A DNA stretch of 64,000 nt from Escherichia coli (GTDB lineage: Bacteria > Pseudomonadota > Gammaproteobacteria > Enterobacterales > Enterobacteriaceae), in the NCBI RefSeq assembly GCF_003018255.1, contig NZ_CP027440.1; one strand, 5' to 3'. Positions 40,526 to 40,570 of the stretch are shown in pieces. The notes under the pieces are model-generated. The model was not told where the DNA came from, did no database searches, and worked only from the letters and a program-made list of their open reading frames with translations. The translations under genes were made by a program, and so were the position numbers. Every line of letters begins with the position of its first letter. Position 1 is the first letter of the stretch.

Positions 40526-40570
40526 GATGTTAATGCCGGGTGTTGTAGGACACCCGGCACCTCCGACAGG

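Follow-up and report, generated by a model that had tools for sequence, protein, structure and literature searches.

Layout of the eutK-eutR Junction

The DNA analysed here, referred to throughout as the window, is a stretch of 64,000 nucleotides from Escherichia coli, and the junction of interest lies on its minus strand, where the gene eutK is followed by eutR. The two coding sequences are separated by a spacer of 45 nt, in which the RefSeq annotation of an identical junction places no feature. In the direction of transcription, the junction is built from the following elements:

40571..41071, minus strand: coding sequence of eutK, a BMC shell protein with a EutK_C tail that ends in LRKRSSRYRLKPH before the stop (from the ORF list; RefSeq gives 501 nt on the identical junction)
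40573..40571, minus strand: stop codon UAA of eutK (from the ORF list)
40565..40570, minus strand: 6-nt linker CCUGUC between the eutK stop and the Shine-Dalgarno sequence (from alignment A3)
40560..40564, minus strand: Shine-Dalgarno sequence (SD) GGAGG, the sole sequence of the spacer complementary to the anti-SD
40550..40559, minus strand: 5' arm of a hairpin, UGCCGGGUGU (from folding and covariation)
40544..40549, minus strand: hairpin loop CCUACA, variable within Escherichia (CGUACA, CAUAUA, AUGU)
40534..40543, minus strand: 3' arm of the hairpin, ACACCCGGCA (from folding and covariation)
40526..40533, minus strand: A/U-rich, SD-less stretch of 8 nt, UUAACAUC, from the stem base to the AUG (8-11 nt in orthologues)
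39401..40525, minus strand: coding sequence of eutR, with its AUG at 40525..40523 (from the ORF list and a RefSeq comparison)

The Pfam domains BMC and EutK_C were found on the eutK orthologues, and the eutK-eutR junction was matched in 5419 of 5426 complete E. coli genomes. Its 45 nt stand against the 6-11 nt of the eutL/K, eutC/L, eutB/C, and eutA/B junctions, which are probably coupled. The only other long intercistronic gap noticed in the eut operon is the one between eutG and eutH, of 317 nt, and it is occupied by a BIME (window 46692-46976) consisting of 2.8 tandem copies of a 100-nt unit; REP palindromes are contained in each unit, with three matches to the REP consensus.

Two further observations concern the strain itself. 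The ORFs at 42647-45438, which we take to be eutB and eutA from the gene order of E. coli and from the annotation of locus L001, are adjacent and only 11 nt apart; therefore, the eut operon is intact in this strain, without the CPZ-55 prophage. In K-12, it is this prophage that interrupts the operon (PMC7617246). The other observation is at the far end of eutR, where the stop codon of the reference E. coli gene (39475..39473, minus strand) reads GGA instead of TGA. As a consequence, the ORF runs on to 39401 and encodes 374 aa instead of 350, with 24 additional residues, and its extended 3' end shares 67 nt with the convergent hemF gene. The exact 45-nt allele that carries this stop loss occurs in 31 of 5397 E. 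coli records. The site of the loss falls in the 3' part of eutR, the region to which the sRNA MavR binds (PMC8565329).

Structure and Stability of the Hairpin

The initial annotation of this DNA had drawn attention to a perfect 9-bp, GC-rich stem on the transcribed strand of the 45-nt spacer, and both its coordinates and its sequence turned out to be exact. The same annotation had remarked that no U-run follows the hairpin; this was borne out on the sequence, and a consensus scan of 39300..41300 returned no terminator-like site and no promoter-like site. The stem of 9 bp with a loop of 8 nt can be extended to 10 Watson-Crick pairs closing a loop of 6 nt (40559..40534, minus strand), to which RNAfold adds two G.U pairs by using the last GG of GGAGG. 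The folding energy is -19.2 kcal/mol for the hairpin alone, -22.7 kcal/mol for the whole spacer, and -27.5 kcal/mol in a context of 101 nt (z = -2.6). In the predicted ensembles, the GGAGG is partly free, with a mean probability of being unpaired of 0.30 in E. coli.

Is a repeat of this kind exceptional? The arms of the hairpin occur once in the window; GC-rich perfect inverted repeats of at least 9 bp are found at 6 loci, as compared with the 0.9 expected per dinucleotide-shuffled window. Such a repeat in isolation is not decisive, and, as far as the compared sequences tell, the case beyond chance is made by conservation and covariation. The other five repeats are located at 5989-6015, 12520-12542, 22995-23016, 44810-44831, and 57799-57820. 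Those at 5989-6015 and 22995-23016 lie between convergent ORFs, have T-runs on both strands, and are probably bidirectional terminators; the one at 12520-12542 is also placed between convergent ORFs, without a clear T-run, while the remaining two are inside coding sequence, in eutA and in the ORF 57320-58270.

Several identities were considered for the hairpin and set aside. The REP consensus GCCGGATGCG...CTTATCCGGCCTAC matches three times in the window, always within the BIME between eutG and eutH (46739-46975) and never at the hairpin, which is thus not a member of the REP family. A long-range helix around the AUG (CUGUCGG/CCG-ACAG), present in the minimum free energy fold of the E. coli sequence, is broken without compensation in Citrobacter and Klebsiella. 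As for a substrate of the RNase III type, we infer from general knowledge that the stem is too short. The covariance models of Rfam 15 gave nothing that overlaps the junction at E <= 10, and no published description of a eutK-eutR hairpin was found in the searchable literature.

Conservation and Covariation across Enteric Bacteria

Within E. coli, the 39-nt element is found at a median of one place per genome and is at least 99% identical in 5367 of 5390 records. To look further afield, species-representative genomes were scanned for EutR, which gave 63 loci, and others were added from a pattern scan of metagenomes and from contigs encoding EutR proteins at 64-92% identity; these additional loci include Phytobacter, the strain ESL0689, a Klebsiella-like cluster (a label that is a guess), and several further lineages. 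In Escherichia, Citrobacter, Klebsiella, Salmonella, Pseudocitrobacter, a Pluralibacter MAG, and Intestinirhabdus, every spacer in which eutR follows eutK shows the same layout: UAA, 6 nt, GGAG(G), the hairpin, 8-11 A-rich nucleotides, and AUG.

The comparison depends on having the two arms in register. A plain MAFFT alignment (A1) shifted the arms against each other by gapping just one of them, and it was replaced by alignments A2 and A3, in which N-padded rows are anchored at the conserved stem base. Among 40 distinct orthologous spacers, 98.4% of 428 cells can pair, as opposed to 35-50% once the 3' partners have been displaced by 1-3 columns, with the proviso that the percentage paired is inflated because the register was set by hand and the arms were cut at the first unpairable position. 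This way of cutting the arms inflates neither the position-specific double changes nor the contrast with the slid partners. Changes on both sides are seen in 9 of the 12 pairs (62 cells), a value reached by none of 500 shuffles; an earlier set of 25 sequences was also scored for covariation.

The variation is distributed unevenly along the stem. The upper part covaries freely, with up to five pair types per position, and the lower part, GCCGG/CCGGC, is nearly invariant (38-40 of the 40 spacers), with rare double substitutions to A-U at pair 1, U-A at pair 2, and A-U at pair 5. An instructive case is an A.C mismatch of Klebsiella, which is repaired to A-U in one metagenome variant and to G-C in another. 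Taken together, the alignments argue that the stem is maintained by selection through compensatory mutations. G.U cells outnumber A.C cells by 30 to 3, and it is therefore the sense-strand RNA whose structure is selected; the same excess rules out a structure formed at the level of DNA or on the antisense strand.

The distance from the eutK stop to GGAG (columns 1-14 of alignment A3, window 40560-40573) is also constant, being exactly 6 nt in all 40 spacers, and the sequence of this linker varies (CCUGUC, UGAACC, UUAACU, CAAGCU, CCCGCC, and others). A low rate of insertions and deletions may account for such a fixed distance, or else it may be a hint that termination and initiation are coupled.

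During the collection of the loci, some contigs labelled as other organisms were found to encode a EutR that is 95-100% identical to that of E. coli (L002, L058, L059, and L060). They comprise a "Citrobacter sp." MAG, a 457-bp "Bacillus hominis" contig, and 411-bp "Prolixibacteraceae" contigs, and they are probably mis-binned or contaminating E. coli DNA.

Position of the Shine-Dalgarno Sequence

A feature that the initial annotation had overlooked is the place occupied by the hairpin with respect to the signals for translation. The sole SD of eutR, GGAGG, lies directly against the 5' side of the stem, whose 3' side is followed after 8 nt by the AUG. In E. coli, the duplex with the 3' end of 16S rRNA reaches -10.8 kcal/mol at GGAGG against -1.7 kcal/mol for the 16 nt before the AUG. 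The first 25 spacers behave in the same manner, with values of -9.5 to -10.8 kcal/mol for the upstream GGAG(G) and of -1.7 to -3.4 kcal/mol for the last 16 nt before the AUG; for the lineages of the set of 40 that have only GGAG (L105, L111, and L112), the upstream site gives -5.6 to -6.6 kcal/mol. GGAG itself (columns G10, G11, A12, and G13) is invariant in all 40 orthologues, while the upper stem and the loop vary.

The spacing is equally constrained. In E. coli, the SD is 34 nt from the AUG on the linear RNA and 8 nt on the folded one. Across the orthologues, 0-2 nt separate the SD from the stem and 8-11 nt separate the stem from the AUG, so that the SD-AUG distance is 34-38 nt if measured linearly and 8-13 nt if the stem is bridged; the stems have 10-12 GC-rich bp, and the hairpin energies range from -16.5 to -24.2 kcal/mol. 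The most extreme case is Intestinirhabdus, where a structured insert of ~61 nt in the apex of the hairpin extends the SD-AUG interval to 86 nt, and even so the closing helix is still flush with GGAGG and 9 nt from the AUG. The insert, in Intestinirhabdus alba (L029, 1404-1500), is palindromic and REP-like, GTCAGGCAA...TTGCCTGATGGC, and the whole spacer folds with -50 kcal/mol.

Relatives that lack the hairpin, such as Pectobacterium, Dickeya, Lonsdalea, Brenneria, and Buttiauxella, have GGAGG or AAGGAG at 5-10 nt from the ATG; in loci of the Buttiauxella type, the spacer is 18 nt long and has no comparable hairpin. Between these two arrangements there are others. Four more distant lineages of Enterobacteriaceae (L031, L106, L107, and L109) combine a hairpin in the spacer with a proximal SD. 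In L107, the proximal SD is a canonical GGAGGAG at 6 nt from the AUG, and an AAGGAG is found upstream as well; L109 has kept the hairpin without the upstream SD. The remaining two are Yokenella, in which both SDs are present and the stem is weaker, and Entomohabitans, where a GGAGAG is located in the loop.

The far-upstream SD also seems to confuse gene callers. In L104 (701-721), the automatically called EutR (protein P0013, 357 aa, from a cluster of 2937 members) begins at a TTG within the hairpin and has 7 extra residues (LPPALTI), with the conserved ATGAAAAAG start found 21 nt downstream. The TTG start is probably a systematic mis-call caused by the position of the SD.

A Proposed Split Ribosome-Binding Site

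What does a stem in this position do? The explanation that we favor, and to which we give an even chance of being right, is that the hairpin is part of the translation-initiation region of eutR and forms a split ribosome-binding site (RBS), one in which the structure bridges the two halves. At 34 nt from the AUG, the GGAGG would be too distant to work on linear RNA. The 26-nt hairpin fills positions 1-26 of the SD-AUG interval, and its folding would leave only the stem base and 8 unstructured, A/U-rich nucleotides between the SD and the AUG, which corresponds to a functional spacing. Either a free 30S subunit or a ribosome fresh from termination at the eutK stop, 6 nt upstream of the SD, would dock on the GGAGG and reach the AUG across the base of the stem. 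Within this model, selection would keep the SD and the AUG together, and the compensatory evolution of the stem would thereby be explained. Beyond what was observed, namely a conserved structure on the sense strand, the place of the single SD, and the constraints on spacing, we infer that folding would be required for the synthesis of EutR or would set its level.

The traits by which a split RBS is recognized can be traced one by one at this locus: the SD is more than 15 nt upstream, a stable structure lies wholly between the SD and the AUG, and its conservation is compensatory. A usable SD at canonical distance is missing in 25 taxa and present in L031, L106, L107, and L109. As for experimental data from the literature, a Salmonella P2-eutR'-'lacZ translational fusion containing the region (-454..+104) is active, and its expression is lowered by overproduction of CsrA, a GGA-binding protein (PMC10433801); furthermore, A-rich spacers favor initiation (PMC7264876). 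Both the activity of the fusion and the effect of A-rich spacers fit a split RBS. As for promoter P2, neither its position nor a start of eutR transcription was found in the literature searched, the consensus promoter scan of 39300..41300 being empty as well, and if the P2 start lies downstream of GGAGG, its transcripts would be devoid of the SD.

The partial freedom of GGAGG in the predicted ensembles has its own implication, namely that the hairpin may, besides enabling initiation, also hold it down. The split RBS is probably not the whole story. The hairpin is kept in some lineages despite a proximal SD, so that bridging is not the sole reason for its existence; in other words, the hairpin is the constant and the position of the SD is the variable, which implies that the hairpin does something besides bridging. 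Another point against bridging alone is that the stems, at -17 to -25 kcal/mol, are much stronger than bridging needs. From the comparison of these sequences, the hairpin probably has a second role, most plausibly that of a barrier to decay.

Taken as the primary function, such a barrier, which agrees with the RNA processing or stability element suggested by the initial annotation, is a possibility that we entertain only tentatively: the hairpin would halt 3'-to-5' exonucleases that set out from ends left in the eutR segment by RNase E cleavage or Rho-dependent termination, the eutS...eutK mRNA would outlive the labile eutR portion, and the split RBS would be the way in which eutR copes with the hairpin. 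The two functions are compatible, and the barrier may be the ancestral one. The locus does offer a stable stem-loop within the operon and downstream of the cistrons to be protected, GC-rich, very stable, and free of a U-tract, as is typical of stem-loops that protect 3' ends; this stem-loop is located at the one long junction, beside the regulator, in an operon whose eutL/K, eutC/L, eutB/C, and eutA/B junctions are so short, and its persistence next to proximal SDs speaks in the same direction, as does the finding that the eutR mRNA, expressed from a plasmid, is a target of RNase E with a half-life of about 0.25-1 min (PMC8565329). A barrier would, however, leave unpredicted the GGAG flush with the 5' arm, the absence of an SD after the stem (40 spacers), and the 8-11 nt from the stem to the AUG, and it has to face the report that induction of the eutR mRNA is of the same order as that of the eutS and eutB mRNAs (PMC7617246). 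Might the hairpin instead restrain translation? As a brake or insulator, it would keep the synthesis of EutR low and uncouple eutR from the translation of eutK, either by distancing or partly sequestering the SD or by blocking ribosomes that slide from the eutK stop. EutR is a regulator of low abundance that takes part in a positive feedback loop (PMC5821096), folding predictions for E. coli and several other taxa have the 3' GG of GGAGG paired, and the other eut junctions checked are all of the short, probably coupled type. Still, this pairing, by G.U pairs or a 3-bp helix, is a weak one that changes from taxon to taxon, a brake does not require a fixed distance of 8-11 nt to the AUG, and the precedents from phage T4 are activating, all of which makes a brake rather unlikely.

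The least probable reading is the one advanced by the initial annotation, a partial intrinsic terminator or attenuator that separates transcription of the structural genes from eutR. A stable GC-rich stem at the boundary before a regulator gene does evoke it, but none of the 40 orthologues, E. coli included, has a U-tract after the hairpin, the 3' flank is A-rich, and the opposite strand is also without a T-run (its plus-strand flank is CCTCCGACAGG). In addition, the induction of eutS and eutB in E. coli Nissle is accompanied by a 12.7-30-fold rise of the eutR mRNA (PMC7617246), and autoinduction of eutR through read-through from P1 is established genetics (PMC5821096); with this co-induction and without a U-tract, the proposal loses its ground. 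Recognition of the RNA by a protein, with CsrA, ProQ-like hairpin binders, or the C-terminal nucleic-acid-binding domain of EutK as candidates, appears improbable too. It would account for a lower stem that hardly changes below an upper stem that covaries freely, and for the response of the Salmonella fusion to CsrA; moreover, EutK_C is encoded directly upstream at every hairpin-bearing locus examined, and the C-terminal domain of EutK has no known function (PMC5821096). Conversely, the lower-stem pairs occasionally change by double substitution, Buttiauxella has EutK_C and no hairpin, and the loops are not conserved and do not hold the GGA, although a loop is the context preferred by CsrA (PMC10433801). 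A canonical CsrA hairpin, which would present GGA in its loop and usually have a second site at the SD, was rejected on this basis: the loops (CCUACA, AUU, GAAA, UGGC, and others) are without GGA, and the only GGA is that of the single-stranded SD, 5' of the stem. A bolder version, and a very unlikely one, would make the hairpin a cis-regulatory node, in which the C-terminal domain of EutK binds the lower stem GCCGG/CCGGC and ties the output of shell protein to the synthesis of EutR, or in which a termination-dependent, prokaryotic "shunt" leads from the eutK stop across the stem base to the eutR AUG; eutK ends 11 nt upstream of the hairpin.

Significance

Why should a 26-nt hairpin deserve this attention? 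Ethanolamine use has EutR as its master activator, and the same protein controls virulence genes in EHEC, Salmonella, and Citrobacter; the amount of EutR is set by positive feedback, which must be kept in check. A covarying, unannotated RNA structure in the translation start of eutR would be, if the proposal is true, a new control point in this circuit, and it would provide a cellular example of the split RBS described for T4-type phages (PMC3014915). The consequences extend to practical matters: gene annotation is affected, one automatic caller having begun a 357-aa "EutR" at the TTG inside the hairpin, and the bridged layout is relevant to predictors of RBS strength, which assume a linear spacer between the SD and the AUG. 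The eut operon is heavily studied, and the evidence of covariation found in it is unusually clean.

Comparison with Known Systems

The hairpin can be set beside several systems already described. Its size and GC content recall those of Rho-independent terminators, from which it differs in having no U-tract on either strand in any orthologue, and in that the autoinduction of eutR requires read-through. A more distant parallel is the ribosome shunting that occurs on the 35S leader of cauliflower mosaic virus, where termination on a short ORF is followed by reinitiation beyond a stable stem. By analogy, the eut junction would present a stop codon at a fixed short distance before the stem base and a start just beyond the stem; the viral process, however, belongs to eukaryotic scanning, and termination-dependent initiation in eut is an analogy only.

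Closer are the stabilizing stem-loops found between cistrons, such as the REP elements of malE-malF and the hairpin-defined 3' ends of the gal operon (PMC9239205). Like them, the eut hairpin is stable, without a U-tract, and internal to an operon, and it sits between upstream genes that are highly needed and a less needed, RNase E-labile eutR. Unlike the malE-malF and gal elements, it is single-copy, it is not a REP, and it is embedded between an SD and an AUG with tight spacing.

The closest resemblance is with genes 38 and 25 of phage T4, for which the work on split RBSs (Nivinskas et al. 1999; Malys & Nivinskas 2009), as summarized in PMC3014915, describes structures that shorten the SD-AUG distance from 22 to 5 nt and from 27 to 11 nt, respectively. 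In these phage genes, translation falls when mutations destabilize the structure, whose conservation is limited to close T-even phages (PMC3014915). The eutR case shares with them a hairpin that lies wholly between a far-upstream SD and the AUG, with 34 nt reduced to 8 nt upon folding, as well as the location at an intercistronic junction and the retention of the structure in a close clade, with an ordinary RBS in distant relatives. There are also differences: eutR belongs to a cellular operon, and its stem is much longer and stronger (10-12 GC-rich bp). Finally, some eut lineages keep the hairpin beside a proximal SD, which suggests an extra function that is not described for T4 in that summary.
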